Of a stretch of 64,000 bases of DNA, positions 9,478 to 57,738 are shown one piece after another (within the stretch, counting starts at the first letter, position 1; every line of letters begins with the position of its first letter). The position numbers were made by a program, and so were the translations under genes. Under the pieces are notes generated by a model. It did not search any database and was not told the origin of the DNA. It saw only the letters and a list, made by a program, of their open reading frames with translations. The stretch covers positions 630,844 to 694,843 of the forward strand of contig OY762063.1 in assembly GCA_963665075.1 (NCBI GenBank). The letters run 5' to 3'. This DNA is from Dehalococcoidia bacterium (lineage in GTDB: Bacteria; Chloroflexota; Dehalococcoidia; Lucifugimonadales; GCA-2712585).

Positions 9478-9482
9478 TTGGG

Positions 9483-10288: not shown

Positions 10289-10297
10289 GGTTTCCTC

Positions 10298-25761: not shown

Positions 25762-25794
25762 CTTGCTTCCTTCCACTATCCACAGGTTAAGGTG
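25762..25794 (+). other. 3' half of 16S precursor processing stem
   Basis: Reverse complement matches 24063-24096 apart from a 3-nt internal bulge and one G-U pair. Confidence 0.75.
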
Positions 25795-25806
25795 TTTTGA
25801 CGAAAA

Positions 25807-25837
25807 GAAGCCGGGCAACCCCCGGCTTCTTTCTTCT
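25807..25837 (+). terminator. Rho-independent terminator closing the 16S transcription unit
   Basis: Stem GAAGCCGGG / CCCGGCTTC and loop CAACC, followed by TTTCTTCT. Confidence 0.7.
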
Positions 25838-28800: not shown

Positions 28801-29160
28801 CAAGTCTACACGAGAGCAACGAGTGCGGATGACGACCAAACAGGCCGAAACAGCTGTGGAGAAAGGCGATGGTTTCCTACTCTGTGTGGTTCCTGTAGGA
28901 AACGATGGAACTAACCTAGAGAAGGAAGAAGTGAGAGCCAACATGCGATTCGTGCAAAATATCGGACCACTCGTTGAGCCTCAATGCACAAAACTCGATT
29001 TGTTGAATAATGTCCGTGACTTCGCCACAGCCCCCAGCGATGATGACATCCGATTGGAAATTGAAGGTGGCACAGCGCGAATAAGCGTCAATGACGCTGT
29101 ATGGCAAGATGGGATATGTCTCAGCGACCTCTCTACGAAGCTAATGTAGCGTAGAATGCG
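25838..29160. other. AT-richer island 1 (single defence-type gene, no recombinase)
   Basis: Composition drops right after the 16S terminator (a spot-counted line is ~50% G+C versus ~65% in the backbone) and recovers near 29160. Confidence 0.55.
25880..29149 (+). CDS. GHKL (sacsin/HSP90/MORC-like) ATPase fused to C-terminal DUF3883 / PD-(D/E)xK-like nuclease domain, 1,089 aa
   Basis: N-box WELLQNARDAS, G1 FQHNGRGFT, G2 GQYGSGFLT. C-terminus has GSDFEIEY...WLVEVKST (D...EVK). The track ORF start at 25763 runs through the rRNA processing stem and terminator and is rejected. Confidence 0.7.
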   Translation: MISKAEIKNRVLTDNTAQGVLNHLRELESNRARMQRRWIWELLQNARDASHEDDTHLVASVELCSGELVFQHNGRGFTMEEVAHLIYHGSTKLEDEETIGQYGSGFLTTHLLSPTIDVSGQLDDKRPFEFRLKREITSAKALSNSMDRAWDQFDASTEAVADSYTTRFRYPLEEEATGAVEEGIKTLKQCAPFVVVFNRQFRSINIQSPDEATTFEVVERVTLAEGLYSVRVGVTEQGALRVQQYLLAEGTQASVTIRIESTDDGVECLALQDIPRLFLGFPLVGTETFSFPAIINSFAFTPTENRDGVYLGQSNDEANQNNQAAIEEAFDLHTKLIKFVAESRWANVHTLANIPTITEQRWLSREWLNDRLRQLVSQVRQTPAVLSGDAALLPKDSIVPLATEDINTEALWDLLSQVKALQQKLPARNEANGWRVAVESWAQIADYDATSFGEGFDSSKLVSYVEEATKHSSNSNIATLEQVVDVDAVAWLDRFYQFLKDENTENLIRERNIVLNQAGYLGKLVNLHRDNEIDEELKAIGDDVLDLRFRVRLRDVRLTSLANEPGKGDLGNNEVSRAVADKLQELSNEDDIGIQFAHASPRFLTWLVTNKQLGSLTGFPAFSKRSNIGNRAVLWLGQKGNINADIPLAPINAWAKDLQPFADIFPWRYILAEDYFAAMPQTDVWRMLSEEGYVRTDVVVNSNNTISDFLPDEPLPEDEHITVEDITQTEIAFLTRTRERVGIMARLRDSQARARLFWRFLTEWLITHDSEGLEPQSANCKCGVSHRYYPARWLVPVVRNIWVPQGNDIHDRATAQSLAKLLRGSGWTPNALSDNPTALKFLEAIRVTRFDLVRHFAASDEESQSALDEDLTKILVATDGDLSHVKAFMEDMKTDKDFLKHLEERRKTRRDVHENQRIGSLVEDLVKDGLEDEGFTVKPTGIGSDFEIEYDRIEGDQEVGIELSRNGRTWLVEVKSTREQRVRMTTKQAETAVEKGDGFLLCVVPVGNDGTNLEKEEVRANMRFVQNIGPLVEPQCTKLDLLNNVRDFATAPSDDDIRLEIEGGTARISVNDAVWQDGICLSDLSTKLM

Positions 29161-31846: not shown

Positions 31847-32984
31847 GCGCGTCAAGACCCTCTGCATCATCTCCGCGACGCTCCTCCTGCTGCCCCTCAT
31901 GGCGGCTTGCGGCAGCGACGATGACGAATCGACGGCGACCCCATCGCCAACCCCCGCCGCCGAGGTCATGGTCGATCTTCCCCACGACGAAGGCGCCCAC
32001 GTCACCCCGATAGAATGGTGGTACTTCAACGGCCACCTGGACACGGAGGAAGGCCGGACTTTCAGCTACCACTTCGTCACCTTCCAGTCCGTGCTGGAGT
32101 CGGGTTTGACGCCCCGGTTGATGCAACTCAGCTGGGCCGACCACGCCGAGGGAATTCATCTGGCTGAGGAGCAGGCTGCCTTCCCAACCATAGAGGCGAC
32201 TTCGGGAGAATTCGACCTCGACGCCGGCGGCTGGCGCATGAGCGGCGACGGCAAGTCCTTCGATCTGTCCTTCAACATCGGCGACTACGCCGTGGAACTG
32301 GAGGGCGTATCCACAAAGCCTCCCGTCTTCCATTATGAAACCGGCTACGTGGACCTGGGCATCGCCGGCAAGACCTACTACTACTCCCACACCGACGTTG
32401 AGACTACCGGCGCGGTTTCCATCGACGGCGTCTCCCACCCCGCGACCGGCGTCGCCTGGATGGACCACCAGTGGGGCGACTTCACCACGGCTGGCATCGG
32501 CTGGGACTGGTTCAGCCTGAATCTCGACGACGGCTCCGACCTGAAAATATCCGTGGTGTGGGAGCTGGACGGCGGCAAGCACGTCGAAACCTACGGCACT
32601 TACGTCAATCCCGACGGTCAGACGGCGCACCTACCCGGAGACGAAGTCGCCCTGGAATCCACCGACGCGTGGGCCAGCCCCGACACCGGCGGCGAATACC
32701 CGATGGGCTGGCGGCTGCGCGTCCACTCACTCAATCTAGACCTAACGCTGACCCCCGTAATAAGAGACGCCGAATACTCCGAATCCCTATTCATCCCCGT
32801 CATCTACTGGGAAGGCGCGATAGCCGCAAACGGCGCCCGCAACGGCAACCCCATCACAGGCCGCGGCTTCGCCGAACTCGTCGGCTACGTCCCCACAACC
32901 CTTCCAACTGGGCGCGTGGTCTCATTGATAGGGAATGAAATTCTCAAGTCGCCACCATCCAGGATCCCTGCTACTCGGCATTAA
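31833..32984 (+). CDS. Lipoprotein, AttH/CrtC-like (hydroxyneurosporene-synthase-like lipocalin fold)
   Basis: Lipobox LMAACGSD; PHDEGAH..IEWWYFNGHL signature. The family-like sequence ends at ...GRGFAELVGYV, and the last ~20 codons read into island DNA. Confidence 0.6.
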   Translation: MLLSKRVKTLCIISATLLLLPLMAACGSDDDESTATPSPTPAAEVMVDLPHDEGAHVTPIEWWYFNGHLDTEEGRTFSYHFVTFQSVLESGLTPRLMQLSWADHAEGIHLAEEQAAFPTIEATSGEFDLDAGGWRMSGDGKSFDLSFNIGDYAVELEGVSTKPPVFHYETGYVDLGIAGKTYYYSHTDVETTGAVSIDGVSHPATGVAWMDHQWGDFTTAGIGWDWFSLNLDDGSDLKISVVWELDGGKHVETYGTYVNPDGQTAHLPGDEVALESTDAWASPDTGGEYPMGWRLRVHSLNLDLTLTPVIRDAEYSESLFIPVIYWEGAIAANGARNGNPITGRGFAELVGYVPTTLPTGRVVSLIGNEILKSPPSRIPATRH

Positions 32985-34076
32985 CAGATCAATTTCCTTT
33001 GCTTTCCGACCTCCGCGCCCGTGGTGCGCTGAAATACCCGGGAATGGCGCAGTGGTTTGCCTGACAAGTAGCCGTCTATGGGGCCATACTTCCCGCATTG
33101 CGGATATACACATTGCAGCGGTCCTTCGGCGTTGGTCGCTACGGACGAGAATTGCTGATCCTCTCTTTAGATGGCCCTTGCATTCTTCGAAAACGCTTGT
33201 GATTAAACGTTGATATTCCACGCGGTTTTCAAATCGTGCTGATTTTGTCCAGTTCTTCCGAAACGGGAAACCAAGCATCCAAAGCCGAATCCAATGGTCG
33301 TTCCAATAATCAGTAACTCCACAATATGGGGGCGATGTAATCAATAGTGCTGCATTTGCACGATTCTGTTTTCGAAGTTCATATCGGGAATCTCCCAGCA
33401 GGACTGTCCCAAAGGCTTGTGTAGGTACGCCGTATTGGTATCGACGGTTAATCTTGGACTCCAACATAGCCACTGGATCTACTTCAGGCGGTTTGAGGTA
33501 ACCATTGCGTGTCCACCATTTGACCGCATAGGTAGGTGAGTATGCGATGGTAGGAGACATGACGTTCGACAGGCCAGATCCCATTTTATCCTGCATGTGC
33601 AAAGCTATAAATGCCATCAGGGTTCTATCTATGACTGAGTTGCGCCAGTCAAGTTCACGGCGAGCAGATTTTAGCAGTGCTCGTACGGTAGGAGACCAAG
33701 CCATAGTTTCAAACCTGCTGTTGCTTCGCCGGTCTATGGGACGACAGGCCCTTGAAATTTCGGCCAGTCTAGCAATGACTTGTTCGGCGGAATTAGAAGG
33801 TTGCAGTTTGGCCGCAGCAAATAGCCATGCAATGGGATTGACGTCGATTCCGAGAGCGTGTCTACCCAGAACTGTGGCGGCGAATGGCCCGTTGCCCCGA
33901 CCACAGAAAGGATCTAGAACCGTTTCTCCCGGCTTTGTTAAGTTGATGATGGCGTCGTGTATGAAGGTCTGGGGGAACATGGCATAATAGCGCCCAAACC
34001 CATACCAGCGTCCTGCGGCTGTGTTACGATGCCATGTGTCCTTGCTCGTTGATTCCCCTTTTTTTGGTATCTTCAT
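32922..34076 (-). CDS. DNA amino-methyltransferase (N6-adenine or N4-cytosine), motif order I...IV
   Basis: Motif I VLDPFCGRGNG.FAA, then ~190 aa, then motif IV LITSPPYCGVTDYW. The ATG at 34076 overlaps the upstream stop (ATGA). Confidence 0.8.
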   Translation of the reverse strand: MKIPKKGESTSKDTWHRNTAAGRWYGFGRYYAMFPQTFIHDAIINLTKPGETVLDPFCGRGNGPFAATVLGRHALGIDVNPIAWLFAAAKLQPSNSAEQVIARLAEISRACRPIDRRSNSRFETMAWSPTVRALLKSARRELDWRNSVIDRTLMAFIALHMQDKMGSGLSNVMSPTIAYSPTYAVKWWTRNGYLKPPEVDPVAMLESKINRRYQYGVPTQAFGTVLLGDSRYELRKQNRANAALLITSPPYCGVTDYWNDHWIRLWMLGFPFRKNWTKSARFENRVEYQRLITSVFEECKGHLKRGSAILVRSDQRRRTAAMCISAMREVWPHRRLLVRQTTAPFPGISAHHGRGGRKAKEIDLLMPSSRDPGWWRLENFIPYQ

Positions 34077-35389
34077 GTCGCGAGGCTGTGTATCAGATCC
34101 GTACCGGCCTTTAGCGGAATAGACGCCCAACGATGAGATCTACGCAAGGCGAGGAATTGATCGCTTCCTACCCCTAACGGTCCAGCCGTGCTGATAGCGT
34201 CTCCCAAGGCACGTGGCGCAGGCTGATTGGTCAGCGGTGGATCTGATTCAGGTTGTGCTATGTTGAGGACAAGTCTTTGTCCTTTTGTAGTTTTTAGAAT
34301 AACGGGCCGTCCATAGTGAGTGAGCTCACCCCAAGGAGTTGGGCTATCGGAATGCCCGGCAATTATGTGTTTTCTGATGTACGCATTGTTTGGCAGCCAA
34401 ACATGGTCAGCAGGGATTCGCTTGTTTGGGGCCGGCGCTCGGTCAAGCTCCTCAGCGTGTTGTACGAACGGCCCGCTTTTAACCCCGGATATAACCAGCA
34501 ATTGTGCGTCTGGACGGAATTTTTGAAGTTCAATTTGGATCCGCTTCATTTCTCTGCGGATTGATTGAGCTAGTACGGCAATGGTGCCAAACGCAGCCAG
34601 TTGACCATCCATGACAAATGCAGTGTTACACAGGGCGGCCAAGCCCTGTTCAGATTTGGCCAAGCGTCGCAGGCTGTTGACCAAAGCCAACATTTCCAGA
34701 GTTTGCATAACTCGAATGTGACACTCACGAGCAGATTCATTTTCTCTAAATTGCTCGTGAACCCTAAGGGCGTCTGTAGTAACGATGCCCATTCCACACT
34801 TGGGGCAATTTTCTTCGGTTCGCGGTTTGGGCATCGGCAGCTGAGTACCATTACAATAAGGATGATTAGGACATCTACGGATTTTATGCTGGGATCCCAG
34901 TACGTAATAAAGACTCTCAGCGAAAGTTTCGCTCCCCAAAGATACTTTATTCAATGTATCATTGAAGGAGCGGCGAAACCATTCTTTAGGACCCAGTCCG
35001 TCAATTGTCTTGGCATTCTTACCTGGCAGCACTGCACCGAGACTATGCCCACACTCGGTCTTCCTGAGTTCCCGCGGATTGACTGCACCGCTGTCGGCTA
35101 GCTTGCTCAGCGATGCTAGTTGTCTTAGCTTGATAACCACAATCCCAAGCGATACAACTCCGGCTTGTGTATCTGGGAGTCTTCCTGGGAAATGGTCATA
35201 GACTTGTGAGCCATCTATGGCTACCAAATGGGTTCGCGATGTCCCTACGGGACTTGGTCGGAAACGTGGTAGGTTTAGTACAGCATCTTGACTAGGTGGT
35301 TGTAACCGATCGCGGAACTCGGCAAATTCCGTGCTATCGGCTATTGCTTGGATTGCAGCCAATCCCGCTCTCTCATCGGAGTACGGCAT
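34073..35389 (-). CDS. NurA-like nuclease with Zn-ribbon insert (putative)
   Basis: HLVAIDGSQV and AFVMDGQLAAFG resemble the two DGS/DGxL NurA motifs. Cys cluster CPNHPYC...CPKCG. Located directly downstream of a HerA-like ATPase. Confidence 0.5.
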   Translation of the reverse strand: MPYSDERAGLAAIQAIADSTEFAEFRDRLQPPSQDAVLNLPRFRPSPVGTSRTHLVAIDGSQVYDHFPGRLPDTQAGVVSLGIVVIKLRQLASLSKLADSGAVNPRELRKTECGHSLGAVLPGKNAKTIDGLGPKEWFRRSFNDTLNKVSLGSETFAESLYYVLGSQHKIRRCPNHPYCNGTQLPMPKPRTEENCPKCGMGIVTTDALRVHEQFRENESARECHIRVMQTLEMLALVNSLRRLAKSEQGLAALCNTAFVMDGQLAAFGTIAVLAQSIRREMKRIQIELQKFRPDAQLLVISGVKSGPFVQHAEELDRAPAPNKRIPADHVWLPNNAYIRKHIIAGHSDSPTPWGELTHYGRPVILKTTKGQRLVLNIAQPESDPPLTNQPAPRALGDAISTAGPLGVGSDQFLALRRSHRWASIPLKAGTDLIHSLAT

Positions 35390-35442
35390 ATTCTACTCAG
35401 TCAACAAATACGTGCTCAGAATTCCCCGTTGCCTGACAAGCC

Positions 35443-37617
35443 TTATGGAGTGGTGGCATCTTGGATCTCGAACTTGTCGAGTTGGACTGGTACAGTATAA
35501 GCCTGTGATAGCGTACGTATTCGCACAAAACCTTGCTCACTGACCTTCCCGATTTGTTCAATGAAGTCTGAGAAATCCATGTATCCGGCGACAACTCTAC
35601 GTTCAGATTCGGAATTCAGGTAGGATAGAACCCAGTTATCGGTTTCACTGAGTATTTCAGGCATCACTGAGCTTGGTGCCTGCGTGGCTAAAACCATTCC
35701 GACATTTAACTTGCTTCCTTCTTTGGCTGTCCTCGCCCATACAGTTGTCAGGTTGTCGCGTGCATTTGCACGGGGGAGTAAGTTGTGGGCTTCCTCAATA
35801 TAGATGATTATGTGCCCTTTCGTCGCTTGGGATTCGTCTGGGGGCTTGGAAGGGTCGAAATTTGCCAAAACAGACCTAAACTGTTCCTGCTGTGATCTGA
35901 ATATGCGCCACATCACCCGCTCGGCGGCAGCTTGATTCTGTTCTGGATCGCCGGCTGATTGGTCAATGATGACCAACTTGCCTTCTCTCAAATCATCGAC
36001 AACGGCTTCGGCGAAATCATTGCTTGTATTAGGATCGTGTTGTTCCTGGGCAATTTGGAAGGAGCGAGGGCCATTTCGGGATTCGAAGATGCGCAACACC
36101 GCTCGAAACCTAGGATCTGCCCAAGATTCATGAGTCGAACTTTTGCTGATATAGTCCTGTTCGAACTTGTCGAAGTAACTCCTTTTGTCTTCAATAAAAC
36201 GTGACAGTGCGGTAAATACTGTTATGAGTTGGTCCCAAGTGACGTTAAATTGTTTAGTTGCAGATGATTCGAGGATATTAGATGCTTGAAGATAGTCTGT
36301 CTTGTTGTCGCTATTCGGGTTTTTGTCTAGTTTAAGGGCAGCAATCAGTTCTTTTGAAAACATCGAGTGCATTCCCGGCCCTTGAATTGAGGGTTGCCAG
36401 TGTGACGGCTGCGACAATCCGGCTGCTACTAGTGCAGTTCGATAGGCTAGAATAGCCCGGTAGTAGCGGGTCTTGGCTCCCATGTCTCCAGCAGCATTGG
36501 GTTCGACAGAAAGGTCTATGTCACGGAAGGCAGTGGTGTACCTGGCAGTTTCGTTTACCATGATATTCTTTATGATTTCTTTGCCGGCAAGCATCTGATC
36601 GAGGGCCTGCTCGACTTTCTGGGTGTCCTGTGCCGTTTGCCAAGATTTAGGTATTGGATCTCCAAAGAAGTTTAGCTTCATAACCTTGCGTTCAGGATCC
36701 CAATCAACAGGAATCAATCCATAGGTTGCAACTTCAGATTGTCGGGGCAAACCTATGGATTCGTGGACTCGGTGAAGGCCTTTACCGTCTTGGTAGTTGT
36801 CTTGGGCATATTCGCCGCTCAAGTCAAAAATAATCTGTCCTATCCGATGTTCGGGATTATCTTGGCGCAACCGATAGATGCTCTCGGCTACAATCTTTAA
36901 GCCGTTTGATTTGCCAGAGCGGGACATACCGAAGTAAACGGTGCGCCTTTTCATTATGTCAGTGGGATTGATCTTAAAATCAACCTTAGTCGTGCTTTCG
37001 GACTCAGCGGCCGCAAACCTAGTACGACCAATTTTCGTAGCTCTTCTATCAATGGGTATGTCATTGGTACGATGACGATGGTTGACTATCAGATCAAGTG
37101 TGGTGGCATCCGGCTTCCATACCATTAGTTGATTGACGGAGTAGTAGTTGTCGATGTCCTCTGCATAACGGTACTGAAGTTTTTCATTCTTGGTTGCCTC
37201 GGCAATGAATGTGCCTAGTACCGAACACTCCAGTCCATGCAAAGACATCTTGTCCTTCATCCAGTCTGGGAGCCGTTCCGACCATGGCCCTCGGTTGCCC
37301 GAATCTTCAATGCTCTCTTGCCTTGTTTGATCATTAGCAGAAGCAGCCGGCAACCTAGCCTCCTTCTGAATTCGCAGTAGAATGAACGACTCGTCTCCAT
37401 CGGGTTTTGCCGCCATTAGAAACGCATTCTTGGGCAATCCACCAGCTTGCTCGCGGTCATAGTCATACACAGCTACAATTGCGCTGCTGTACGAGATGGT
37501 ATAAACAGTCCCTACCTTGGGCGCTCTCTCCCTAAACGGCCTAGTCTCCGGCTGGCTAGCGCTTTGGATTAGGTCATCAATAACAGTTGCTGATGAGTTC
37601 TGCTCATCTTGTGCCAT
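35443..37617 (-). CDS. HerA/FtsK-superfamily ATPase (HAS-barrel + DUF87-like P-loop domain), 724 aa
   Basis: N-terminal barrel-like GTVYTISYSSAIVAVYD; Walker A YFGMSRSGKSN; Walker B HIIIYIEEAHNLLP; LATQAPSSV...SYLNSESE block typical of HerA. Confidence 0.75.
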   Translation of the reverse strand: MAQDEQNSSATVIDDLIQSASQPETRPFRERAPKVGTVYTISYSSAIVAVYDYDREQAGGLPKNAFLMAAKPDGDESFILLRIQKEARLPAASANDQTRQESIEDSGNRGPWSERLPDWMKDKMSLHGLECSVLGTFIAEATKNEKLQYRYAEDIDNYYSVNQLMVWKPDATTLDLIVNHRHRTNDIPIDRRATKIGRTRFAAAESESTTKVDFKINPTDIMKRRTVYFGMSRSGKSNGLKIVAESIYRLRQDNPEHRIGQIIFDLSGEYAQDNYQDGKGLHRVHESIGLPRQSEVATYGLIPVDWDPERKVMKLNFFGDPIPKSWQTAQDTQKVEQALDQMLAGKEIIKNIMVNETARYTTAFRDIDLSVEPNAAGDMGAKTRYYRAILAYRTALVAAGLSQPSHWQPSIQGPGMHSMFSKELIAALKLDKNPNSDNKTDYLQASNILESSATKQFNVTWDQLITVFTALSRFIEDKRSYFDKFEQDYISKSSTHESWADPRFRAVLRIFESRNGPRSFQIAQEQHDPNTSNDFAEAVVDDLREGKLVIIDQSAGDPEQNQAAAERVMWRIFRSQQEQFRSVLANFDPSKPPDESQATKGHIIIYIEEAHNLLPRANARDNLTTVWARTAKEGSKLNVGMVLATQAPSSVMPEILSETDNWVLSYLNSESERRVVAGYMDFSDFIEQIGKVSEQGFVRIRTLSQAYTVPVQLDKFEIQDATTP

Positions 37618-47452: not shown

Positions 47453-48028
<576 letters not shown>

Positions 48029-48095
48029 TCAACTATGCCGTACAATGGGCGTTGCCCGCAAGTTCCGCCCCGCGTCGGCAGTCAAGGAGACGATT

Positions 48096-49625
48096 ATGGA
48101 TGGAATTGAACAAGCCTGGTACACGCGCCAATTCTGGGCCAAGGCGCAGCCCTACGGACAGTCCGGCCCGGAGCGGATACACCTCCTCGAACACCACCTG
48201 GCCGACGTAGGCGCCTGCTTCGAAGCCCTGCTCAAAATCCCAACCATCCGCCGCCGTCTTGCAGCCGCCGGGGGGTGCGACGACCTGGACGCCGCCACCG
48301 TCGCCCGCCTCTCCCTCCTCGCCGCCTTCCACGACGTCGGCAAAGTCAACGTCGGCTTCCAAACCAAAATCTGGCGCAACGAGGACTTCTCCGGCGGGAG
48401 ACGCAAGCCCGGCCGGGCCGGACACGTTGCCGACATGGTCCCCGTGCTCACAAACAAGGACCAGAAGACGGCAGAATGGTTTTTCGACTCCCTTGGCTGG
48501 TGGCATGAAGCGACCGAATCGTGGGATGACCGTTGCGGCGAGACAGTCTGCGCCCTCTTCGTCGCCTCCCTCTCCCACCACGGACGTCCCCTGCAATTGG
48601 AGTCAACCAGGCAAAGGAATCCAACCATCTGGCAACCCCATTCCTGCCTTCATCCCGAAAATTACGTCAAGCGGCTTGGAAAACTTTCGCGCCAATGGTT
48701 CCCCGCCGCCTTCCACTCCGACGCGCCGCCCCTGCCCTCCAACCCCGCCTTCCAACACGCCTTCCTCGGCCTCTGCAACTGGGCCGACTGGATAGGCTCC
48801 GACGAACGCCGCTTCAGTTTTCTCGACCGGCCCTGTGAAGACTACATCGAGACTGCCCGCAACCGCGCCAGGGAAGCCGTCGCATCCATTGGACTGGACA
48901 TATCTACCCAGAGACGCTCCTTCAACGACATACCGGACTTCGCCGCCCTTTTTGAGATTGAAGGCGCTCCCAACGCCATCCAGAACGCCATCGCCGACAC
49001 CCCCCTGGAGGAACGACTCGTCATCATCGAATCCGAAACCGGCTCCGGCAAGACCGAAGCCGCCCTCTGGCGATTCGCCAAAATGTACCGCGCCGGCATC
49101 GTCGACGGCCTCTACTTCGCCCTACCCACCCGCACCGCCGCCGTCCAGATCCATCGGCGGGTCAAGAATTTCGTCGCCAGACTCCTCCCCCGCCGCACAC
49201 CTTCCACCGTCCTCGCCGTCCCCGGCTACCACCCCAACGCCGACGCCTCCCCCGTCGAAATTCCCCCGTACAACGAAGGCGCCGCCGGCATCGCCCCCGA
49301 AGCCGTGCCCTGGGCTTCCGAGCATCCCAAGCGATACCTCGCCGCCCAAATCGCCGTCGGAACCATCGACCAGGCCCTCATGGGCGCGTTGCAGGTCAAA
49401 AACGCCCACATGCGCGCCGCCTGCCTCACCCGAAACCTCCTCATCGTCGACGAAGTCCACGCCTCCGACACCTACATGAGCGTCGTCCTCGAAGCCCTCC
49501 TCCGCGCGCACCTGAACTCCGGCGGCTACGCCCTCCTCATGTCCGCCACCCTCGGCTCCGCCGCTCAGTTCACCACTACGGGAGGCAACTGTTTGTCTTC
49601 ACGCTCTTCGTATGGAAACTGCTGA
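48096..49625 (+). pseudogene. cas3: cas3 (type I-E style HD nuclease + SF2 helicase), 3'-truncated at ~49565
   Basis: AAGGAGA-ATG. HD motifs LEHHLADV and FHDVGK; helicase motifs ETGSGKTEAAL, LPTRTAA, LIVDEVHASD and MSATLG. The sequence then switches to AT-rich island DNA and stops after 20 unrelated codons. Confidence 0.8.
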
Positions 49626-50842
49626 CGATAATTTTCAAGCAATTCGGCCTCTTTTACCTCTGTCAGTTTTTCACCCGCTAGATAAGCAACCAGGTCAGTC
49701 GTAAGATTGCGATTCTTGGTGATTATCCTGCCGTCAGTACCACCGGTCCAAAGTACCCGATCCCATATTTGCAAGTTTTCATCGGTTAATGCCCAAGGAA
49801 GATGGTTAAGCACTTCGCAGGCCTTGTCATACGACAAGTTGGTCGGAGGGTTTGTAAGCCGCATAAACCCACGAACTAAGCATTCCTGTGGAACAGGCTT
49901 CCCTAACAAATTGGATTGACGAATTTGAACCCGCCCGGCATCGCCCGATTCCTCAGTGTCGGACAAGGCATCAGCGAAGACATCAATGTTTTCCAAGAGA
50001 AATTGCCAAACTTCGGACACCTTTTCGTCGTAGAGACGGATCTTGGCCTTGTCAGGCAGTTTTGACTTGTCAATCGTACCCTCGGGGAAACTTCCTTTAA
50101 TTATTTCTTCGTTACACCGGTAAACGATGGGGAGAGTTGTGAAGTAGTGATCTCTTACTCCCAAGCTGTTACTCGTATATTTTACTAGGCGAGCTCCGAT
50201 TATGTCGTTGGTTACCTTCCGAGCAAGGTAGGCCACTACATCATCGTCATCGGTGATGATGTTCTGTCCCGTTGTAGTTGCTTTTGCGTACTTGTTTACT
50301 TGAGTGAAAATCTTCCGTGCTTTGTGAGCCTTGAATGGCACGAGAATAACGGTTATATCTTCTTGGGCAAGGGCCATACACGGGGTAATATCAGGTATGT
50401 TGCGTCCCCTCTCGTCTCGCCCTGTGACTGCAAATTTAATGGCCTCCAAGCGATGTTGACCGTCAAGGGGAACCAGAACTTCTCCACCATGAAAAGTCAG
50501 AAACCCTATTGACGAAGCGGGTACACGATATAACCCAGGCAATTTCCTGGTGATGACTTCGGATAGGGGTTCAAACAAGATTTCATCGTCCATATTTATC
50601 GCCGCGACAATTATCGCCCCGAAGAATCGTCCATCGTCGTTGGCAAAGTAGGGGGCAATTTGCTTTCGGACACGATTGAAGTTGATATCCCTCTGGTAAC
50701 GCTCCTCTAGAAGGAGGTCTTCCCATCCTTCAATCTGACTAGGAATCTTCACTTTGTCGACCAGTTCCTGGGCCTTCATCGAAAGGATGAAGTAGTCGGT
50801 ATCCCCCAGCCGTGCCTTCATTGATGCTACTGTCGTAGCCAT
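49565..50842 (-). CDS. DGQHR-domain protein (DndB-like, ParB/Srx fold)
   Basis: VLVPLDGQHRLEAIKFAV motif, 425 aa. Last gene of the cassette. Confidence 0.65.
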   Translation of the reverse strand: MATTVASMKARLGDTDYFILSMKAQELVDKVKIPSQIEGWEDLLLEERYQRDINFNRVRKQIAPYFANDDGRFFGAIIVAAINMDDEILFEPLSEVITRKLPGLYRVPASSIGFLTFHGGEVLVPLDGQHRLEAIKFAVTGRDERGRNIPDITPCMALAQEDITVILVPFKAHKARKIFTQVNKYAKATTTGQNIITDDDDVVAYLARKVTNDIIGARLVKYTSNSLGVRDHYFTTLPIVYRCNEEIIKGSFPEGTIDKSKLPDKAKIRLYDEKVSEVWQFLLENIDVFADALSDTEESGDAGRVQIRQSNLLGKPVPQECLVRGFMRLTNPPTNLSYDKACEVLNHLPWALTDENLQIWDRVLWTGGTDGRIITKNRNLTTDLVAYLAGEKLTEVKEAELLENYRQQFPYEEREDKQLPPVVVN

Positions 50843-50854
50843 TGGCTTCTCCTG

Positions 50855-51184
50855 CTACCTGTTGTGTTGTATGTTAGCTTCTGGCTTCCACAACCTTATC
50901 AGTCGACGCTCCAGATTGTCAATCTTGGTCAAATCGGCTGCCATGTAACACACGTCCAAATTCTCGCCGAAGACTTGAATCCATAGCCTAAGCGTTTCAT
51001 TGTGCGAGCCGCGCCAATGATACGTCAATCGCTTCTTAACGGGTTGCTTCTTCGCCTTGCCTACGTAGATGCACTTCCCGTTGTCGCGGCACCAAAATGC
51101 GTATACGCCAAAGACATTTCTAGGAACGCCCTCGATTCCGAGGTACGACCACCTAATTGCTCTTCTATCGTGTATGGAACCCAT
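50855..51184 (-). CDS. Small GIY-YIG nuclease-domain protein
   Basis: FGVYAFW...CIYVGKAKK.PVKKRL.YH...E(RRLIRLWKP)EAN gives the GIY, YIG, R, E, N order. The track ORF start (51274) overlaps the upstream gene by 110 nt, so the ATG at 51184 is preferred. Confidence 0.55.
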   Translation of the reverse strand: MGSIHDRRAIRWSYLGIEGVPRNVFGVYAFWCRDNGKCIYVGKAKKQPVKKRLTYHWRGSHNETLRLWIQVFGENLDVCYMAADLTKIDNLERRLIRLWKPEANIQHNR

Positions 51185-52973
51185 GCGGAATGTCCCAAAC
51201 TTGAGCGGCCAGTTTTGCCATGTCTTTTTGGCGCTTCTCGATTGCGTCCGGCGACCACTCGTGAACCTCTGCAATGCTACTGGTTAGGTTAATGGTACTC
51301 CTACCAAAAATTTCCTGCTTACGAGTGAAGCTCCGATTCGTAGCTGCCCCAGGCTTATTGTCTGAGTTGCTCAACAACGTCAGGTTACCTATGCGATGTA
51401 TATTTGCCTGGTGGCTCTGCTCGTCAAAATTAGGCCAATATCCTAAATGACCCTGAGATATTGGGAGGATGTGTTCCACCGTATAGGCAGTTTCGTTGAT
51501 TGTCAATCCGGATTGTTCCTTGTACGCGATGCCTAGAAGAAACCTCTTTGCCTTCCCTCTATAACTACTTCGGATAGTAGCTCGTTCCATCAAAGCAATG
51601 AAATTCGAATCATCAAGAATCCCCAGATCATCAACTTCGCGCAGGCAACCATAAAAATCAACATCGTCAAGTGAACTGGCTGACATCACCTGCTGGGCTA
51701 AAGTTGCAAATTGCCGATCAAGATGTGACGGTTGAAATTGTCGGATTGCCAAAGCAGTTCGTATGACAAAGGAGGTGAGTAACTTTAGGCGAGTGTGCAC
51801 AAATTTTGCGATCTTTCTTTTTTTTGCCCTATCTTCCTCTTGTAGATAACGATCAAGCAAGGCAAAAACTATTGGGCGGCACACAGTATAGTATTTCAAT
51901 TCGCTCAGAAAGATAAACAGGTTTCTCCCAGGTTTGCCCGGGGCATCCCCAATGAACCTTGAAATCAAAGGGTCAGTTTCACGGGGTGACGATATGGAGT
52001 GGAAAATTACAATCCTTTCCCCCTTGGCCATATCCTCCACCAAACCATAAACGAAATTGGCCAAATCGGCATCAGAGGGTCCATTGGCATTGACCCTGAT
52101 TTGTGACTTCATCTCCCTGTATAGACGGTCTTTGCGTAGGTAGCCAAACCTACATTGCAGGTAGCACCTAATATACTCCTCAACCCTCGTTTTGCTCCGC
52201 TCTTCTCTAAGTCCAACTCGCATACCCTCAAGGTGGTCGTGAATCGTATCGCGTCGGGGACCTTCGGCCTTTCCGAAAAAAGAGTAAATGTGATTCCGAA
52301 TCAGGTCTACTTCACTAAGGGGCTTTCCCCTGGCATTAAGTGTTTCAAAGACAGCATTCGGGTTGAGTTGTCTTGGAACGTGGATGCATGCAACTTCAAG
52401 TTTGCGTATTAGAAAATCGAAAAAACTCGTGGCGTCATCTACACTAAAAGATTCAAAATACTCATCGATTACACGCCAAGCCTTCGTTAGCTTTCCGTTG
52501 GGGCTGACATCCTTGCCCCGTATGAGCGTATTGTAATTTGTCTTATCGTTCTCAGGAGGAGTAAGTCTGGGGAATAGGATGTCAGACTCTGTTAGTGAAA
52601 CGCGATCATATTCACCAATATCAAATAAAATACGCAAAGCGTCTTGTTCTCGTAATGCATCTCCTATTTCGTAAAATATACGGACAAGTCGAGCGCAAAT
52701 TAGCGAGAAAGTTACCATGCGTTGCTGCCCGTCATTGATTTCCCAGAGGTCATCGTCTTTTTCTACAAGCATAATGGCTCCCAGGAAGTAACACTCACGC
52801 TCCTCTAGTACCGCTTCCTGTAAGTCATCCAGCAAATCAGAAACATCCTCATTTCCCCAATCGTAATAGCGCTGATGCCAAGGCACCTCATACTTTCCCT
52901 CGTGAAACAAGAATGAGAGCTTGGCCGTAGCTGCACCTATGACAGTTTCGCTATCTCTACCAGTTGTTTTCAC
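51165..52973 (-). CDS. DUF262 (DGQQR ParB-like NTPase) + DUF1524 (His-Me finger) protein, SspE/GmrSD-like
   Basis: N-terminus YEVPWHQRYYDW and WEINDGQQRMVTF. C-terminus YTVEHILPIS...IGNLTLLSNSDN. The GTG start overlaps the upstream stop (GTGA). Confidence 0.7.
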   Translation of the reverse strand: MKTTGRDSETVIGAATAKLSFLFHEGKYEVPWHQRYYDWGNEDVSDLLDDLQEAVLEERECYFLGAIMLVEKDDDLWEINDGQQRMVTFSLICARLVRIFYEIGDALREQDALRILFDIGEYDRVSLTESDILFPRLTPPENDKTNYNTLIRGKDVSPNGKLTKAWRVIDEYFESFSVDDATSFFDFLIRKLEVACIHVPRQLNPNAVFETLNARGKPLSEVDLIRNHIYSFFGKAEGPRRDTIHDHLEGMRVGLREERSKTRVEEYIRCYLQCRFGYLRKDRLYREMKSQIRVNANGPSDADLANFVYGLVEDMAKGERIVIFHSISSPRETDPLISRFIGDAPGKPGRNLFIFLSELKYYTVCRPIVFALLDRYLQEEDRAKKRKIAKFVHTRLKLLTSFVIRTALAIRQFQPSHLDRQFATLAQQVMSASSLDDVDFYGCLREVDDLGILDDSNFIALMERATIRSSYRGKAKRFLLGIAYKEQSGLTINETAYTVEHILPISQGHLGYWPNFDEQSHQANIHRIGNLTLLSNSDNKPGAATNRSFTRKQEIFGRSTINLTSSIAEVHEWSPDAIEKRQKDMAKLAAQVWDIPHGFHTR

Positions 52974-54166
52974 ATTGTCTCCGATTCCAGTTTTGCCATA
53001 AGCCTGATGTGGCCTTCCTCGTGGATCCTATCGCGTCGCCATATATCCTGAATAAACTCGATTTCGGAGGGTGATATCAGGCTCCGTTTAATCTGAGACT
53101 GCAACGCGAGCAAATCATCAAGGAGCCTACGACGCACTTCAAGCTTGAATGGACCATATACCAAAGTCCCATCAGAGCGGATTTTGGTGTGCCCATCTCT
53201 GCGACGAGGTAGACGGTTACAGTTATCTTCTCGCAATTCAATCAATTCTTCGCGAAAGCTGAAAAGTGACTCCAACATCTCCTGATCAGCATGGCCTGAG
53301 TCAATTACTCCCCGCATGCTACGGTCCTTGGTGACGACAGTACAAGTCCAGCATCCAAAGCGAGGGGAAGTTGTACCACAAGAGGGGGCGTCATCTTTAG
53401 TCAGAATTAGTGGACATTCACCACCTCCGGCGTTGCGATACAGAGTGATGAGTTCTCTATGCGTCCCGCCCCAAGGCGGTTTCCTTTGCATCAGAATCAT
53501 CCATACCTCGTTATCCAACAAATCCGCCAATGGAGCAAAAATACTGCAACCCTCGACTGAACTATGAGGATTCATAGTATTTGCCTTAACTCCGTGTTTT
53601 TTCATATTGCGACTGCGGTTTTGTGATTCAGCCCGGCGCGTTCCTACAAGCAATATCGCCCGTTTATGTCGTGCAACCAGTCCTTTCAGCAACCTGTCCG
53701 TTGGCTGAATTTTCATACGGTCAGTACACCATCTGAAATTTCGGGTCGGTGGGATGTAGCCACGCCCAATGACGTTGACCCAGAATGTCTGGTCGACGTA
53801 GGGCTGAGTGATTTGGGCAGAAATTGGCAACCGCATTTCTTCGGCCACCTTGCGAATGGTTCCTATGCTCTTTCGCAAGTGCTCAATCACTAGGGGAGAT
53901 TCAACAAGCGTGTCGTTAGAAATGACGAATATCTTTCGCCTGCGCTCTGGAGCCGATACAGATGATACGGTTTCCCAAACCATCTGCAAAAGCAGGGTTG
54001 AGTCCTTGCCGCCGGAAAAGGCGATTATCCACGGATCATCGTGGGGTTGTAGATATTCGCACAGCAACACTTTTCGCACAGTTGCATAACGTGAAGCAAC
54101 ATTAGAAACCTTTACGATTCCCATTTTTTCTGCCTCGTTGGACTGCATTTCGTCTATACCGTTCAA
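52970..54166 (-). CDS. PAPS-reductase-family PP-loop ATP pyrophosphatase, DndC/SspD-like
   Basis: PP-loop IIAFSGGKDS, FRWCTDRMKIQP, C-terminal Cys motif PRFGCWTCTVV. 4-nt start/stop overlap with the desulfurase gene. Confidence 0.7.
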   Translation of the reverse strand: MNGIDEMQSNEAEKMGIVKVSNVASRYATVRKVLLCEYLQPHDDPWIIAFSGGKDSTLLLQMVWETVSSVSAPERRRKIFVISNDTLVESPLVIEHLRKSIGTIRKVAEEMRLPISAQITQPYVDQTFWVNVIGRGYIPPTRNFRWCTDRMKIQPTDRLLKGLVARHKRAILLVGTRRAESQNRSRNMKKHGVKANTMNPHSSVEGCSIFAPLADLLDNEVWMILMQRKPPWGGTHRELITLYRNAGGGECPLILTKDDAPSCGTTSPRFGCWTCTVVTKDRSMRGVIDSGHADQEMLESLFSFREELIELREDNCNRLPRRRDGHTKIRSDGTLVYGPFKLEVRRRLLDDLLALQSQIKRSLISPSEIEFIQDIWRRDRIHEEGHIRLMAKLESETM

Positions 54167-55395
54167 TCCTGAATACTGGCAGTATAATTTGGAAGACTCT
54201 CCTTCACATCAAGCCAATCTCCATCGTAATTTTCAAGAGATGAAATTTCACGAAGCTCTCGCACAGCAAGGGTGATTTCCTTTGCGGCGTAGTCAATATC
54301 TTCTTCTGTTGTGTAGCGCCCAATACTGAAACGCACCGAATGATGTGCCTTCTCTTCATCCAGCCCAAGTCCAATGAGTACGTGGGAAGGTTCCACAGCG
54401 GCCGACGTGCAAGCCGAACCCGCAGCCATAGCTATATTGGGTAGCCTCATCATCAGGGACTCACTCTCTACCATAGGAAAACACGCGTTGATGATTCCAG
54501 GCACACAGTACAACCTATTCCCGTTGAAAGTGACTAAGTCAATCCGTTGCAACAAGCCAATAAACCGCTCTGCCAAGCGATTTGTCCGACCGGTATCGGC
54601 TTCTAGATGCAATCTTGTTAGCCGTGCCGCCTCACCCATCCCAACTATTTGATGCGTTGGTAAAGTACCGGAACGCATTCCTCCCTCGTGCCCACCGCCA
54701 TGAATCTGGGCTTGGATTCGCAGTCGGGGATTGTACCTTACGTACAATGCTCCTATGCCCTTCGGCCCGTACATCTTGTGTCCGCTCATTGACACAAGAT
54801 CTGCCTTGACGTTCTGCAAATCTAGAGGGAGCCGTGCCAGACTCTGAGCAGCATCGATATGAAATACAATGTCGCGTGCCCTTGTAATTGCGCCTATAGC
54901 TTCAACGTCGGTGATGGTTCCAATCTCGTTATTCACATGCATCAGCGATACCAGGAAGGTCTCAGGGAGTAATGCATTTTCTACCTGTTCGGGAGAAATG
55001 ATGCCACCAAAATCTGGTTTGAGATAGGTAACCTGAAATCCTTGTCGTTCCAAGTATTCGCAAGTGTCGAGAACAGCACGGTGCTCGATAGATGAAGTCA
55101 CTATGTGCTTGCGACCATGAGAGCGTGTATGAGCAACCCCCTTAATCGCCAAATTGATTGATTCTGTTGCACCAGACGTCCAGATTATTTCCTCTGGCCT
55201 GGCATTGACGAGACTTGCCACTTGCCTTCGGGCCTTTTCCACTGCTTCCTCAGCTTTCCACCCAAAGCTATGTGAACGTGAGGCAGCATTCCCAAAGACT
55301 CCTGTCGGTCCCAAGTAGCGAGTCATGCGACTAACTACTTTAGGATCAACTGGTGTCGTCGCCGCATAGTCTAGATATACCACACCGTTCATCAT
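54163..55395 (-). CDS. Class V PLP-dependent cysteine desulfurase (IscS/NifS/DndA/SspA-like)
   Basis: VYLDYAATTP..., SGHKMYGPKG (PLP Lys), GSACTS (catalytic Cys). First gene of the cassette. Confidence 0.8.
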   Translation of the reverse strand: MMNGVVYLDYAATTPVDPKVVSRMTRYLGPTGVFGNAASRSHSFGWKAEEAVEKARRQVASLVNARPEEIIWTSGATESINLAIKGVAHTRSHGRKHIVTSSIEHRAVLDTCEYLERQGFQVTYLKPDFGGIISPEQVENALLPETFLVSLMHVNNEIGTITDVEAIGAITRARDIVFHIDAAQSLARLPLDLQNVKADLVSMSGHKMYGPKGIGALYVRYNPRLRIQAQIHGGGHEGGMRSGTLPTHQIVGMGEAARLTRLHLEADTGRTNRLAERFIGLLQRIDLVTFNGNRLYCVPGIINACFPMVESESLMMRLPNIAMAAGSACTSAAVEPSHVLIGLGLDEEKAHHSVRFSIGRYTTEEDIDYAAKEITLAVRELREISSLENYDGDWLDVKESLPNYTASIQD

Positions 55396-55461
55396 GGTAA
55401 TTCAACCTTGACCATATACTACCAAATTATCCTACAAAATGGAGTATAAACCAAACGGTAG

Positions 55462-56229
55462 GAAAGCGGAGAGTACGGCATCCCCTTCCAATCCCTCTCC
55501 ATGATACTCCTGGGGCCGGGTTCCACCGTCAGCCACGACGCCCTGCGCCTCATGGCTCGGCACGGCACCGCCCTCGTCGCCGTCGGAGAAGACGGCGTCC
55601 GATGCTACACCGCTCCCCCTCTCATGCCCGATACTTCCGACACCGCTCGTCGCCAGATGAAAGCCTGGGGCGACCCCGAAGGCGGGCGCATCGCCATCGC
55701 CCTCAAAATGTACGCCCTCCGACTCGGAGAAGTCCTTCCCTTCCGCGACATCAACGCCCTGCGCGGCGTCGAAGGCGGACGCGCCAGAAGAATGTACCAG
55801 AACGTCGCCCAGCAATACGGAATCACCTGGCGCGGCCGTCGCTACGATAGAACCGACCCCCTCGCCGCCGACATCCCCAACCAGGCCGTCAACCACGCCT
55901 CCGTCGCCGTAACCTCCGCCGCCGTCATCGCCGTAACCTCCGTCGGCGCTATCCCCCAACTCGGCTTCATCCACCAGCATAGCGGCGACGCCTTCGCCCT
56001 CGACATAGCCGACCTGTTTCGGGACACCGTCCTCCTTCCCGCCGCCTTCAAATCCGCCAAAGCCGTAATCGACAACCCCAGGCTCGACATTGAACGGCAC
56101 GCCAGACGAACGACGGGCGAGATGCTTCGCACCCAGCGAGTCATCCCAAAGATGATCGACCGAATCAAAACCCTGTTTCAAGACGTCTCCCCCCTCAACG
56201 ACGACCCCGATATTGCGAGAACGGAATGA
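55462..56229 (+). pseudogene. cas1: cas1 (type I-E style), 5'-truncated (~50 N-terminal codons missing)
   Basis: GIPFQSLSMILLGPGSTVSHDALRLMARHGTALVAVGEDGVRCYTA aligns with residues ~45-90 of the E. coli Cas1 sequence as I remember it. In-frame stop at 55459-55461; first ATG at 55501. Confidence 0.75.
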
Positions 56230-56510
56230 CCGTCGTAGTAACAGTTAACGTAGAGGCCCGATACCGGGGATTTCTCGCGTCGGTGATGCTGGAAATCGCG
56301 CCCGGCGTCTACACCTCTCCACAAATGACCAACGGCATCAGGGAAAGAATCTGGGAAGTCCTATCCGGTTGGCACTACCAACTGGGGCAAGGCGCCATAG
56401 TGATGACGTGGCGGGACCCGGCGGCGGCGGGCCAGAGAATAAGGACCCTCGGAGAAGCTCCAAAAGAAATCGTTGACGCCGACGGCGTCTACCTGGTGAA
56501 ATACAACTAG
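56226..56510 (+). CDS. cas2: Cas2 (type I-E style)
   Basis: 94 aa. MTVVVTVNVEARYRGFLASVMLEIAPGVYTSP resembles E. coli Cas2 ([29 protein letters not shown]). ATGA overlap with cas1. Confidence 0.8.
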   Translation: MTVVVTVNVEARYRGFLASVMLEIAPGVYTSPQMTNGIRERIWEVLSGWHYQLGQGAIVMTWRDPAAAGQRIRTLGEAPKEIVDADGVYLVKYN

Positions 56511-56612
56511 GCAAACTTCGAAAAACCGCCGATAGCGCCTTTCATCCCAAAACAGCAGGCAGAGATACGATGCGATAGCTCAACCCTGACGACAAATACG
56601 AAACTCGTTAGG
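56511..56612 (+). promoter_or_regulatory. Probable CRISPR leader
   Basis: ~100-nt less GC-rich spacer between the cas2 stop and the first repeat. The degenerate repeat lies at the opposite end of the array. Confidence 0.4.
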
Positions 56613-57738
56613 GGTTCCCCCGCACCCGCGGGGATAGACCGGCGTGGCTGGCGAAGCAAAGGCTGGCGAAGTGGGTTCCCCCGCACCCGCGGGGATAGAC
56701 CTCACATCAAGGGGATTAGCCATGCCCAGATCCAGGTTCCCCCGCACCCGCGGGGATAGACCGATATGGCGGGAAGAGCTGGAGGAGATGGGGGTGGTTC
56801 CCCCGCACCCGCGGGGATAGACCCCACCCTTGGCATCTACCGCGTCTGGCCCCAGTGGTTCCCCCGCACCCGCGGGGATAGACCCTTGACCGCCTGGTCA
56901 GTGCCTATGCCGAGGACGGTTCCCCCGCACCCGCGGGGATAGACCGGTATCCTAAAAAGCGACGCCCCGCCCGTCCCCGGTTCCCCCGCACCCGCGGGGA
57001 TAGACCCTTTTTGGAGCGAGGCTGATTTCCTCCGCCCCCGGTTCCCCCGCACCCGCGGGGATAGACCTGTACGGGTCGTTGGGGTCCGCGCCGTTCTCCA
57101 GGTTCCCCCGCACCCGCGGGGATAGACCTCCCTGGTACGAGCCGCCGCCGGAGTTGCCGACGGTTCCCCCGCACCCGCGGGGATAGACCACGCACTGTCC
57201 GGCAACCCGCCGCCGGGCTCGGGGTTCCCCCGCACCCGCGGGGATAGACCGCAGTTCTTACTCCGCCGCCGCCCTGTATGCCTGGTTCCCCCGCACCCGC
57301 GGGGATAGACCGCTTCCTTTTCCCATGATGCTGGCGTACATTGAGGTTCCCCCGCACCCGCGGGGATAGACCTATGATAGCAATATCGGTAATGTTGGTA
57401 AAATTGGTTCCCCCGCACCCGCGGGGATAGACCTGAAGGGGCGAAGAGGATTCGGCATACGACGGCGGTTCCCCCGCACCCGCGGGGATAGACCCACCTT
57501 GAATAGATCGTATGCATCCCCGCTCACGGTTCCCCCGCACCCGCGGGGATAGACCCTATGAATTTGACTACACGATTGCGATGTCGGCGGTTCCCCCGCA
57601 CCCGCGGGGATAGACCGGCGACGGCTCGCCGGTGGAAGGCGATGGCTCGGGTTCCCCCGCACCCGCGGGGATAGACCGTGGAAGGCGTGGACTGAAAGAG
57701 GATTTAGACGGATTCCCCCCCACCCGCAGGCACAAACC
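56613..57738 (+). CRISPR. CRISPR array, type I-E-like repeats: 18 identical + 1 degenerate terminal repeat, 18 spacers
   Basis: 28-nt repeat GGTTCCCCCGCACCCGCGGGGATAGACC at an exact 61-nt period from 56613 to 57650. The last copy at 57711 is degenerate (GATTCCCCCCCACCCGCAGGCACAAACC). Spacers are 33 nt. Confidence 0.95.

Follow-up and report, generated by a model that had tools for sequence, protein, structure and literature searches.

A candidate sulfur-modification and restriction cassette with a DndA-DndC-GmrSD core and no adjacent DndD/DndE or SspB/SspC genes

Five genes in a low-GC island of a Dehalococcoidia genome

We analyzed a window of 64,000 nucleotides from the genome of a Dehalococcoidia bacterium (assembly GCA_963665075.1, contig OY762063.1, positions 630,844 to 694,843), in which five minus-strand genes at 49565-55395 of the window recall DNA phosphorothioate (PT) systems. 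The first encodes an IscS/DndA-type cysteine desulfurase of 410 amino acids (54163-55395), and it is followed by a short DndC, a PP-loop/[4Fe-4S]-type sulfurtransferase of 398 amino acids (52970-54166); by a GmrSD-type protein of 602 amino acids, with an N-terminal DUF262 ParB-like nucleoside triphosphatase (NTPase) domain and a C-terminal DUF1524 His-Me nuclease domain (51165-52973); by a small GIY-YIG nuclease of 109 amino acids (50855-51184); and by a DGQHR-domain protein of 425 amino acids from the ParB/DndB superfamily (49565-50842). All five are in the list of open reading frames (ORFs) of the window, and their match to named families is far beyond chance. The ORF coordinates fix 4-nt overlaps at 54163-54166 and 52970-52973, a 20-nt overlap at 51165-51184, and a 12-nt gap at 50843-50854. 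The guanine-plus-cytosine (GC) content of the island is 0.477, and that of its flanks 0.622 and 0.635. A preliminary description made from the sequence alone had reported five co-directional minus-strand genes in AT-richer DNA, packed like an operon; its coordinates, overlaps, gap, and composition were all confirmed, and every motif it quoted was located in the translations, although GCWTCT, which it had placed at the C terminus of the DndC, occupies residues 271-276 of 398.

The desulfurase, the proposed sulfur mobilizer, matched Pfam Aminotran_5 (1.5e-83) and the NCBIfam IscS model NF010611 (552 bits; cutoff 548), fell below the DndA equivalog cutoff (TIGR03235, 409 bits versus 480), and scored 523 bits against PADLOC SspA and 518 bits against PADLOC DndA. 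By its IscS and PADLOC DndA scores, it is a DndA/IscS-type desulfurase of the kind that DndABCDE systems require. Its motifs are SGHK at 204-207 and GSACTS at 326-331, in which the pyridoxal phosphate-binding Lys207 (SxHK) and the catalytic Cys329 (GSAC) were invariant among 61 desulfurases of the clade.

The PP-loop enzyme, the proposed sole PT writer, lies above the DndC equivalog cutoff (TIGR03183, 347 bits versus 290; model positions 12-348 of 447). It had been described as DndC/SspD-like; the DndC part of that assignment holds (PADLOC DndC, 379 bits), whereas the SspD part does not (34 bits, compared to 447 bits for the true SspD of a metagenome locus, L091, discussed below). The motifs AFSGGKDS, RWCTDRMK, and GCWTCT are all present, and SGGKDS, RWCTDR, and the cysteines C207, C251, C263, C272, and C275, which include the GCWTC dyad, were invariant in 19 DndC members. 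The protein shares 42-50% identity with DndCs whose genes stand in bona fide dndC-dndD(-dndE) clusters in cultured bacteria, the nearest being those of Mesorhizobium amorphae pM0123d (50% identity, 355 amino acids) and Burkholderia glumae (42%). Because it passes the equivalog cutoff and shares this level of identity with bona fide DndCs, the same chemistry is the parsimonious expectation. The best Foldseek matches of the confident core of a predicted structure (predicted local distance difference test score, pLDDT, 65) were the [4Fe-4S] PP-loop thiolases NcsA, LarE, and TtuA, and the modeled fold core would be in keeping with an enzyme that adenylates its substrate and then transfers sulfur. 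A search of the PDB for a DndC or TdpC structure, using the single sequence and a 19-sequence profile, returned no match. The M. amorphae gene (L114) lies in a large cluster at 7814-19068 that contains a desulfurase, DndC, a DndD-like ATPase, DndE, a small protein, a second ATPase, an FtsK/SpoIIIE protein, another AAA ATPase and, at its edge, a gene annotated as "DNA phosphorothioation-associated DGQHR protein 1".

For the 602-amino acid protein, the proposed modification-sensitive effector, both Pfam domains scored above their cutoffs (GmrSD_N, 1.4e-26; GmrSD_C, 1.7e-21). Its best PADLOC match was HEC-06 (PDLC04157, 252 bits, profile positions 13-556 of 558), ahead of "Orf5" (187 bits) and SspE (52 bits). 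Among PDB entries, the best match was DndI (9JFL, E 1.1e-7), at low similarity (34 bits), and the match to SspE (E 6e-5) spanned the nuclease motif alone. The earlier comparison with SspE and GmrSD was right about the DUF262 and DUF1524 domains, and the protein stands much nearer to HEC-06 and DndI than to SspE. The motifs are QRYYDW, DGQQR at 81-85, EHILP at 500-504, and GNLTLL at 529-534, and DGQQR, EHxxP, and GN..N were invariant in 67 GmrSD members. The protein thus has what defines the GmrSD/HEC-06 nuclease family, namely a DUF262 DGQQR, a DUF1524 (D/E)HxxP, and a match along the full-length profile.

The GIY-YIG ORF as called mechanically reaches 51274; homologues are 108-110 amino acids long and begin at the ATG at 51184, which we take as the start. 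The protein matched Pfam GIY_YIG_2 (PF20815, 2.2e-10) and GIY-YIG (4.9e-6), and residues Y58, Y70, G72, R82, E122, and N134 were invariant or nearly so in 22 homologues. The DGQHR protein matched Pfam DndB (PF14072, 1e-25) and the DGQHR model TIGR03187 (71.6 bits; cutoff 58.85) but is not a DndB equivalog, with a score far under the cutoff (TIGR03233, 45 bits versus 328). It is full length when compared with 23 homologues, in all of which D127-G-Q-H-R131 is invariant, and since the gene is full length, the left island boundary lies directly after its stop codon. The predicted structure (pLDDT 82.5) gave weak, nonsignificant matches to ParB-N folds (E ≥ 0.19) and would be consistent with membership of the ParB superfamily, nothing further.

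Recurrence of the core and exchange of accessory modules

Among GTDB species-representative genomes, a scan confirmed 141 with a relative of the DndC; the best 80 were analyzed by comparing every ORF of their loci with the five window proteins in BLAST searches. The DndC clade is tight, with lengths of approximately 380-405 amino acids, and the top 120 database matches were all 64-100% identical. The DndC relatives, 58-71% identical to the window protein, all come from metagenome-assembled genomes (MAGs) and span more than 10 phyla, with hosts in Chloroflexota, Binatia, Acidobacteriota, Gammaproteobacteria, Alphaproteobacteria, Nitrospirota, Nitrospinota, Latescibacterota, Rhodothermales, Gemmatimonadota-type Longimicrobiales, Dadabacteria, and Thermodesulfobacteriota. 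The titles of many records suggest a sponge microbiome as the source (Candidatus Poriferihabitaceae and Porisulfidus, besides isolate names that we take to belong to sponge MAG series).

The GmrSD gene lies directly downstream of the DndC gene at 69 of the 80 loci and the desulfurase gene directly upstream at 62, and exact 4-nt overlaps are common, both between DndA and DndC (36/62) and between DndC and GmrSD (46/68). Downstream of this core, the loci carry one of two accessory modules. The complete arrangement of the window, with GIY-YIG and DGQHR genes (type A), was found at 20 loci, 14 with the desulfurase and six without it, in addition to a few partial copies; the five-gene order whose co-occurrence the preliminary description had proposed to survey thus recurs in 20 of 80 species genomes. 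A second complete arrangement (type B), with an SNF2 helicase, a ParB_N protein, an HTH_ParB protein, and a protein of 344 amino acids, was found at 42 loci, and four loci have the core only. No locus carries both modules, and in a few type B loci a distant DGQHR-like gene (24-29% identical) lies further downstream. Type B is therefore commoner than the type of the window (42 of the loci L008-L087); in an example at 10001-17155 of L005/L006, the (DndA)-DndC-GmrSD genes are followed by the helicase (DpdE/ZorD-like in PADLOC, 199 bits), ParB_N, and HTH_ParB, and the 344-amino acid protein matched no family. Clustering of the DndC sequences separated types A and B only partly, which suggests module exchange; the typing in that comparison followed a loose DGQHR criterion, and we do not lean on the result.

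Cassettes of both types are on average approximately 8 GC points below their flanks, whatever the GC content of the host (59 genomes), a pattern that fits horizontal transfer of the cassette as one functional unit. Neither terminal repeats nor mobility genes were found flanking the island of the window, and the cassettes in the 59 genomes are likewise without integrases or terminal repeats. The cassette is a conserved recurrent module and not an accident of one genome.

The preliminary description had remarked on the local absence of DndD/DndE and SspB/SspC, and the absence extends further. Profile searches gave no match to DndD, DndE, SspB, or SspC, either in the cassette or, with Pfam and PADLOC, in the remaining low-GC islands of the window, and none was found within 10 kb at the 80 related loci. 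When the neighboring ORFs of these loci were clustered, no recurrent ABC/SMC ATPase or DndE-like gene appeared, and the remaining recurrent clusters were housekeeping or unrelated genes. The SspB and SspC models clearly detect both genes in L091 and gave no match in the cassette or its neighbors. The nearest cultured short DndCs keep dndD and, in Mesorhizobium, also dndE; the loss of adjacent dndDE and the gain of a fixed GmrSD partner are therefore a derived feature of the clade. We considered whether the shortness of the DndC (398 amino acids against a model of 447 positions) could explain independence from DndD/E and dropped the idea, since DndCs of 355-375 amino acids still adjoin dndD.

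The GIY-YIG/DGQHR pair reaches beyond this core. The DGQHR family, with 126 clusters at 50% identity (E ≤ 1e-30), is a modest one. Of the 26 metagenome loci returned by a scan from the DGQHR side, 21 have a GIY-YIG gene directly upstream, and the linkage persists down to 34% identity. The more distant members of the pair adjoin Ssp modification genes and not DndC. At L091 (1174-9269), SspB (355 bits), SspC (1267 bits), and SspD (447 bits), with a desulfurase upstream, are followed immediately by GIY-YIG and DGQHR, and SspD-type genes lie beside the pair in L104 (4592-11618), L098, L099, L101, and L102. The pair therefore behaves as a PT-associated plug-in accessory module used with two different writers. 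An idea arising from the preliminary description, that DGQHR and GIY-YIG replace the missing ATPase and nickase, did not survive this comparison. Since the pair is present directly beside complete SspB-SspC-SspD modules, where SspB and SspC are themselves encoded, it is not a substitute for them, and it is optional to the DndA-DndC-GmrSD core, for which 42 of 80 loci have a different accessory set. In these canonical SspA/B/C/D modules, GIY-YIG and DGQHR occupy the place where SspE or SspFGH would be expected, and several of the Ssp-type loci have a conserved ORF of approximately 95 amino acids, without a family match, downstream of DGQHR.

The CRISPR-Cas locus around the cassette and neighboring islands

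The island lies within a type I-E CRISPR-Cas locus (47946-57677). To its left, a truncated cas3 on the plus strand (47946-49564; PADLOC Cas3e, 317 bits, model positions 21-371 of 680; Pfam Cas3_HD and DEAD) has a frame that runs into the antisense of the DGQHR 3′ end, marking the left island edge, and the composition breaks at approximately 49565. To its right, an AT-rich leader of undefined strand (55396-55500), presumably the promoter region, extends from the desulfurase start to a cas1 remnant and forms the right edge; a simple scan for sigma-70 promoters was uninformative, and scanning for promoters and terminators gave results no better than those from shuffled sequence. The plus-strand cas1e remnant (55501-56229; PADLOC Cas1e, 360 bits from model position 59 of 288) is missing approximately 58 N-terminal residues and is followed on the same strand by an intact cas2e (56226-56510; PADLOC Cas2e, 137 bits) and a CRISPR array (56613-57677) of 18 identical 28-nt repeats with a 61-nt period, for which 18 exact matches compare with 0 expected by chance. 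The island has replaced the interference genes of this locus and left the array orphaned from them, so that one defense system overwrote the effector half of a CRISPR-Cas locus. A DEDDh/RNase T-type exonuclease gene (47453-48028, minus strand; PADLOC Cas-associated DEDDh, 70 bits) lies immediately upstream of cas3.

The preliminary description had raised the loss of the missing partner genes through misassembly at the island edges as a scenario that would undermine it, and an independent short-read assembly (L116) excludes it. Its alignment with the window is colinear (87.5% nucleotide identity) and extends from the CRISPR repeats across cas2, the cas1 remnant, and the junction into the DndA, DndC, GmrSD, and GIY-YIG genes; in this second lineage the cas1 remnant is still an open frame of 242 amino acids with 92% amino-acid identity, and the cas2/cas1-remnant/DndA junction is common to both although the leader itself has diverged.

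The other low-GC islands of the window were considered as a source of the missing partners and rejected, as they hold a Tiamat TmtA and a trio of methyltransferase, uncharacterized protein, and HerA-like ATPase. The former is a protein of 1128 amino acids at 25763-29149 on the plus strand (PADLOC TmtA, 636 bits, full length). The latter, in a separate minus-strand island at 32922-37617, approximately 12 kb from the cassette, consists of an N6/N4 DNA methylase (32922-34130), a 438-amino acid protein without a Pfam, PADLOC, or PDB match (34073-35389), and a HerA-like ATPase of 724 amino acids (35443-37617) whose best PDB match, TdpA (8wet, E 4.8e-13), covers only approximately 75 C-terminal residues; the trio may represent HerA-based restriction paired with a methylase. 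The HerA-like gene was also considered as a remote partner of the cassette and set aside: it is not a recurrent neighbor of the short DndC at the 80 loci, and the PDB match involves only the generic HerA C-terminal core.

Relation to known systems and a proposed mechanism

No defined PADLOC system corresponds to the five-gene combination, in agreement with the earlier remark that it was not recognized as a described subtype, and the literature that we searched contains no account treating this combination, the DndA-DndC-GmrSD core, or either accessory module as a system. The closest precedent for the writer, one that the preliminary description had not considered, is TdpABC (An et al., Nat Chem Biol 2025, cited in PMC12914056 and PMC13223576), the subject of a paper whose title refers to an adenylated intermediate. 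No other described system is reported to make PT with one DndC-like gene: tdpC alone suffices for PT synthesis, without DndD/E or SspB/C (PMC12914056). This precedent for a DndC-only writer lowers the surprise of the present cassette, whose proposed writer part fits TdpABC in gene content, with TdpC compared by description only. The two differ in that TdpA, a HerA-type ATPase, and TdpB, with which it works, are neither in the cassette nor recurrent near it at the 80 loci; in the effector, here a GmrSD-type protein together with GIY-YIG/DGQHR; and in their hosts, Tdp being reported from extremophiles and the present clade belonging to uncultured, apparently sponge-associated lineages. In its sequence network of dndC, the same source has small clusters, of which one shows a DUF262 neighbor (PMC12914056); because that study required a P-loop NTPase neighbor, it would under-sample the present architecture.

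On the effector side, the nearest parallel is IscS-DndBCDE-DndI, which combines a desulfurase, DndC, and a DndB-family protein with the DUF262-DUF1524 nickase DndI (PMC11662687). DndI and SspE are both PT-sensing nickases of this domain type, and DndI senses PT via Tyr25 (PMC11662687). The window has the same type of effector, with DGQQR and His-Me motifs, but differs in being without DndD/DndE, in a DGQHR protein that falls short of a DndB equivalog, in a histidine at the position of Tyr25, and in an extra GIY-YIG nuclease. SspABCD-SspE (Xiong et al. 2020; summarized in PMC11662687 and PMC12914056) follows the same logic of a desulfurase, a PAPS-reductase-type enzyme, and a GmrSD-like PT-sensing effector, and the GIY-YIG/DGQHR pair also occurs beside true SspBCD; here, in contrast, the writer is DndC-type and not SspD-type, SspB and SspC are absent, and SspE profiles match weakly. 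HEC-06, a GmrSD-like protein with proven antiphage activity that requires its DGQQR and EH motifs (Payne et al., bioRxiv 10.1101/2024.01.29.577857), shares the DGQQR and EH..P motifs with the window protein, of which it is the best PADLOC match, but it is defined within Hma systems and acts alone, whereas the gene studied here is translationally coupled to DndC. The DGQHR protein shares its motif, a probable ParB-like N-terminal fold, and Pfam PF14072 with DndB and perhaps with DpdB, but differs in its sub-cutoff DndB equivalog score and in being paired with a GIY-YIG nuclease.

Taken together, the cassette looks like a minimal, re-wired sulfur-modification and restriction system, a possibility already raised in the preliminary description, to which the recurrence of the five-gene order lends weight. 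We give a probability of roughly one half to the proposal that the island would be a self-contained module for PT-type DNA modification and restriction, with a DndC-only writer, a coupled GmrSD effector, and an exchangeable GIY-YIG/DGQHR pair. Judging from its family, the desulfurase would draw sulfur from cysteine and pass it to the short [4Fe-4S]/PP-loop DndC. By analogy with TdpC, DndC may then place the sulfur on the host DNA backbone through ATP-dependent activation of the phosphate and could do so without a scanning apparatus of the DndD/DndE or SspB/SspC kind, in the manner reported for TdpC, a single-gene writer. Homology and linkage suggest that the translationally coupled GmrSD protein would act as the primary effector, nicking or cutting invader DNA, and that the modification would modulate it on host DNA, as with DndI and SspE. 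GIY-YIG and DGQHR would form a second, exchangeable module, most likely a reader/nuclease or, alternatively, a DndB-like regulator with a backup nuclease. A bolder version of this proposal, which we hold only tentatively and consider somewhat improbable as a whole, is that these loci represent a fourth architecture of PT immunity, spread over more than 10 phyla and largely sponge-associated, in which a desulfurase-assisted DndC would be the writer and the mark would be read by a Trp-His pocket of GmrSD and by a hitherto unrecognized two-gene GIY-YIG/DGQHR plug-in shared with Ssp.

Several observations weigh against the proposal of a self-contained module. Canonical Dnd systems require DndC together with DndD/DndE as a DndCDE complex, and these partners are missing locally. 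Cultured DndCs of 355-375 amino acids are equally short and yet stand beside dndD, in Mesorhizobium also beside dndE, and the independence of the present clade from DndDE is inferred from gene neighborhoods only. The DndC model is of mediocre quality at its pLDDT of 65. The segment P23-T-Y25-Q-R of DndI aligns with P31-W-H33-Q-R of the window GmrSD, and at the position of the PT-sensing Tyr25, the clade has histidine in 63 of 67 members and tyrosine in three, preceded by a nearly invariant tryptophan; PT sensing by GmrSD, if any, does not use the described tyrosine pocket. Finally, HEC-06 defends alone, so that the GmrSD gene need not depend on a modification.

One alternative is that the cassette is part of a split canonical Dnd system, in which DndA-DndC needs a DndD/DndE pair (or a CxC ATPase/DndE pair) encoded elsewhere and is accompanied by a DndI-like effector and a DndB-like regulator. 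Apart from the company kept by the nearest cultured DndCs, such an arrangement is made plausible by the many DndD-DndE pairs without adjacent PT genes noted by Rakesh et al. (PMC10853773) and by the use of the same kind of effector in IscS-DndBCDE-DndI (PMC11662687), and our neighborhood survey covered ±10 kb per genome. We nevertheless regard it as unlikely: no DndD/E-like gene lies within that distance at any of the 80 loci, no recurrent neighbor cluster is one, the DGQHR protein is far from a DndB equivalog, and a need for unlinked host genes would be difficult to square with the spread of a compact low-GC unit over more than 10 phyla. Slightly less probable still, in our estimate, is that the genes are merely co-located, GmrSD being a stand-alone HEC-06- or type IV-like defense and GIY-YIG/DGQHR an independent pair, while DndA-DndC carries out another thiolation (of RNA, a nucleobase, or a small molecule) or a PT modification unrelated to defense. 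Beyond the solitary protection by HEC-06 (bioRxiv 10.1101/2024.01.29.577857), whose profile the window protein spans, such a reading draws on the poorly conserved sensing tyrosine, on the exchangeability of the accessory modules, and on the clustering of defense genes for other reasons too. The linkage of GmrSD to DndC, downstream at most loci and so often through a 4-nt overlap, is nevertheless much tighter than expected of defense-island co-location, and the GIY-YIG/DGQHR pair adjoins PT writers of two unrelated architectures. The DndC also passes the DndC equivalog cutoff.

For the accessory pair, a two-polypeptide reader/nuclease is the role that we favor as most likely, by analogy, because a ParB-superfamily protein together with a nuclease would mirror the fused architecture of SspE and DndI. 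We know of no constant pairing with a GIY-YIG nuclease for DndB or DpdB. DGQHR might instead be a DndB-type negative regulator of the operon, and GIY-YIG either a selfish endonuclease of the homing type or a backup suicide effector that cuts indiscriminately: DndB regulates dnd operons (PMC4507180), the DGQHR protein belongs to Pfam DndB, and stand-alone URI/GIY-YIG nucleases at the borders of Dnd clusters have been proposed as backup suicide effectors (Rakesh et al., PMC10853773). We doubt this account of the pair, although it fares a little better than the two readings of the cassette just weighed. Sporadic homing endonucleases differ from genes that are obligately linked in a fixed order from 34% to 73% identity; the catalytic residues of GIY-YIG are invariant; Ssp systems, normally without DndB, carry the pair in the usual position of the restriction module; and the DndB equivalog score lies far under its cutoff.

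Every domain of the cassette and its overall logic have precedent; its composition and the two accessory modules are uncharacterized, and the cassette is widespread enough to matter. It amounts to a parts list that annotation tools currently miss, a three-gene core with two exchangeable accessory modules, and GIY-YIG/DGQHR is a candidate new PT-dependent restriction module that also plugs into Ssp. Such cassettes may explain why the PT genes enriched in sponge metagenomes appeared "not functionally complete" (PMC5099237), as well as the dndA/B/C-like genes with DUF262/DUF1524 noted in passing in sponge Thaumarchaeota (PMC6790972). To our knowledge, PT is the only natural modification of the DNA backbone. 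The DndC clade, found in 141 species genomes and without adjacent DndD/E or SspB/C at the 80 loci analyzed, would offer a natural test of DndC-alone writing outside thermophiles, bearing on how the writer finds DNA and on what machinery it needs.

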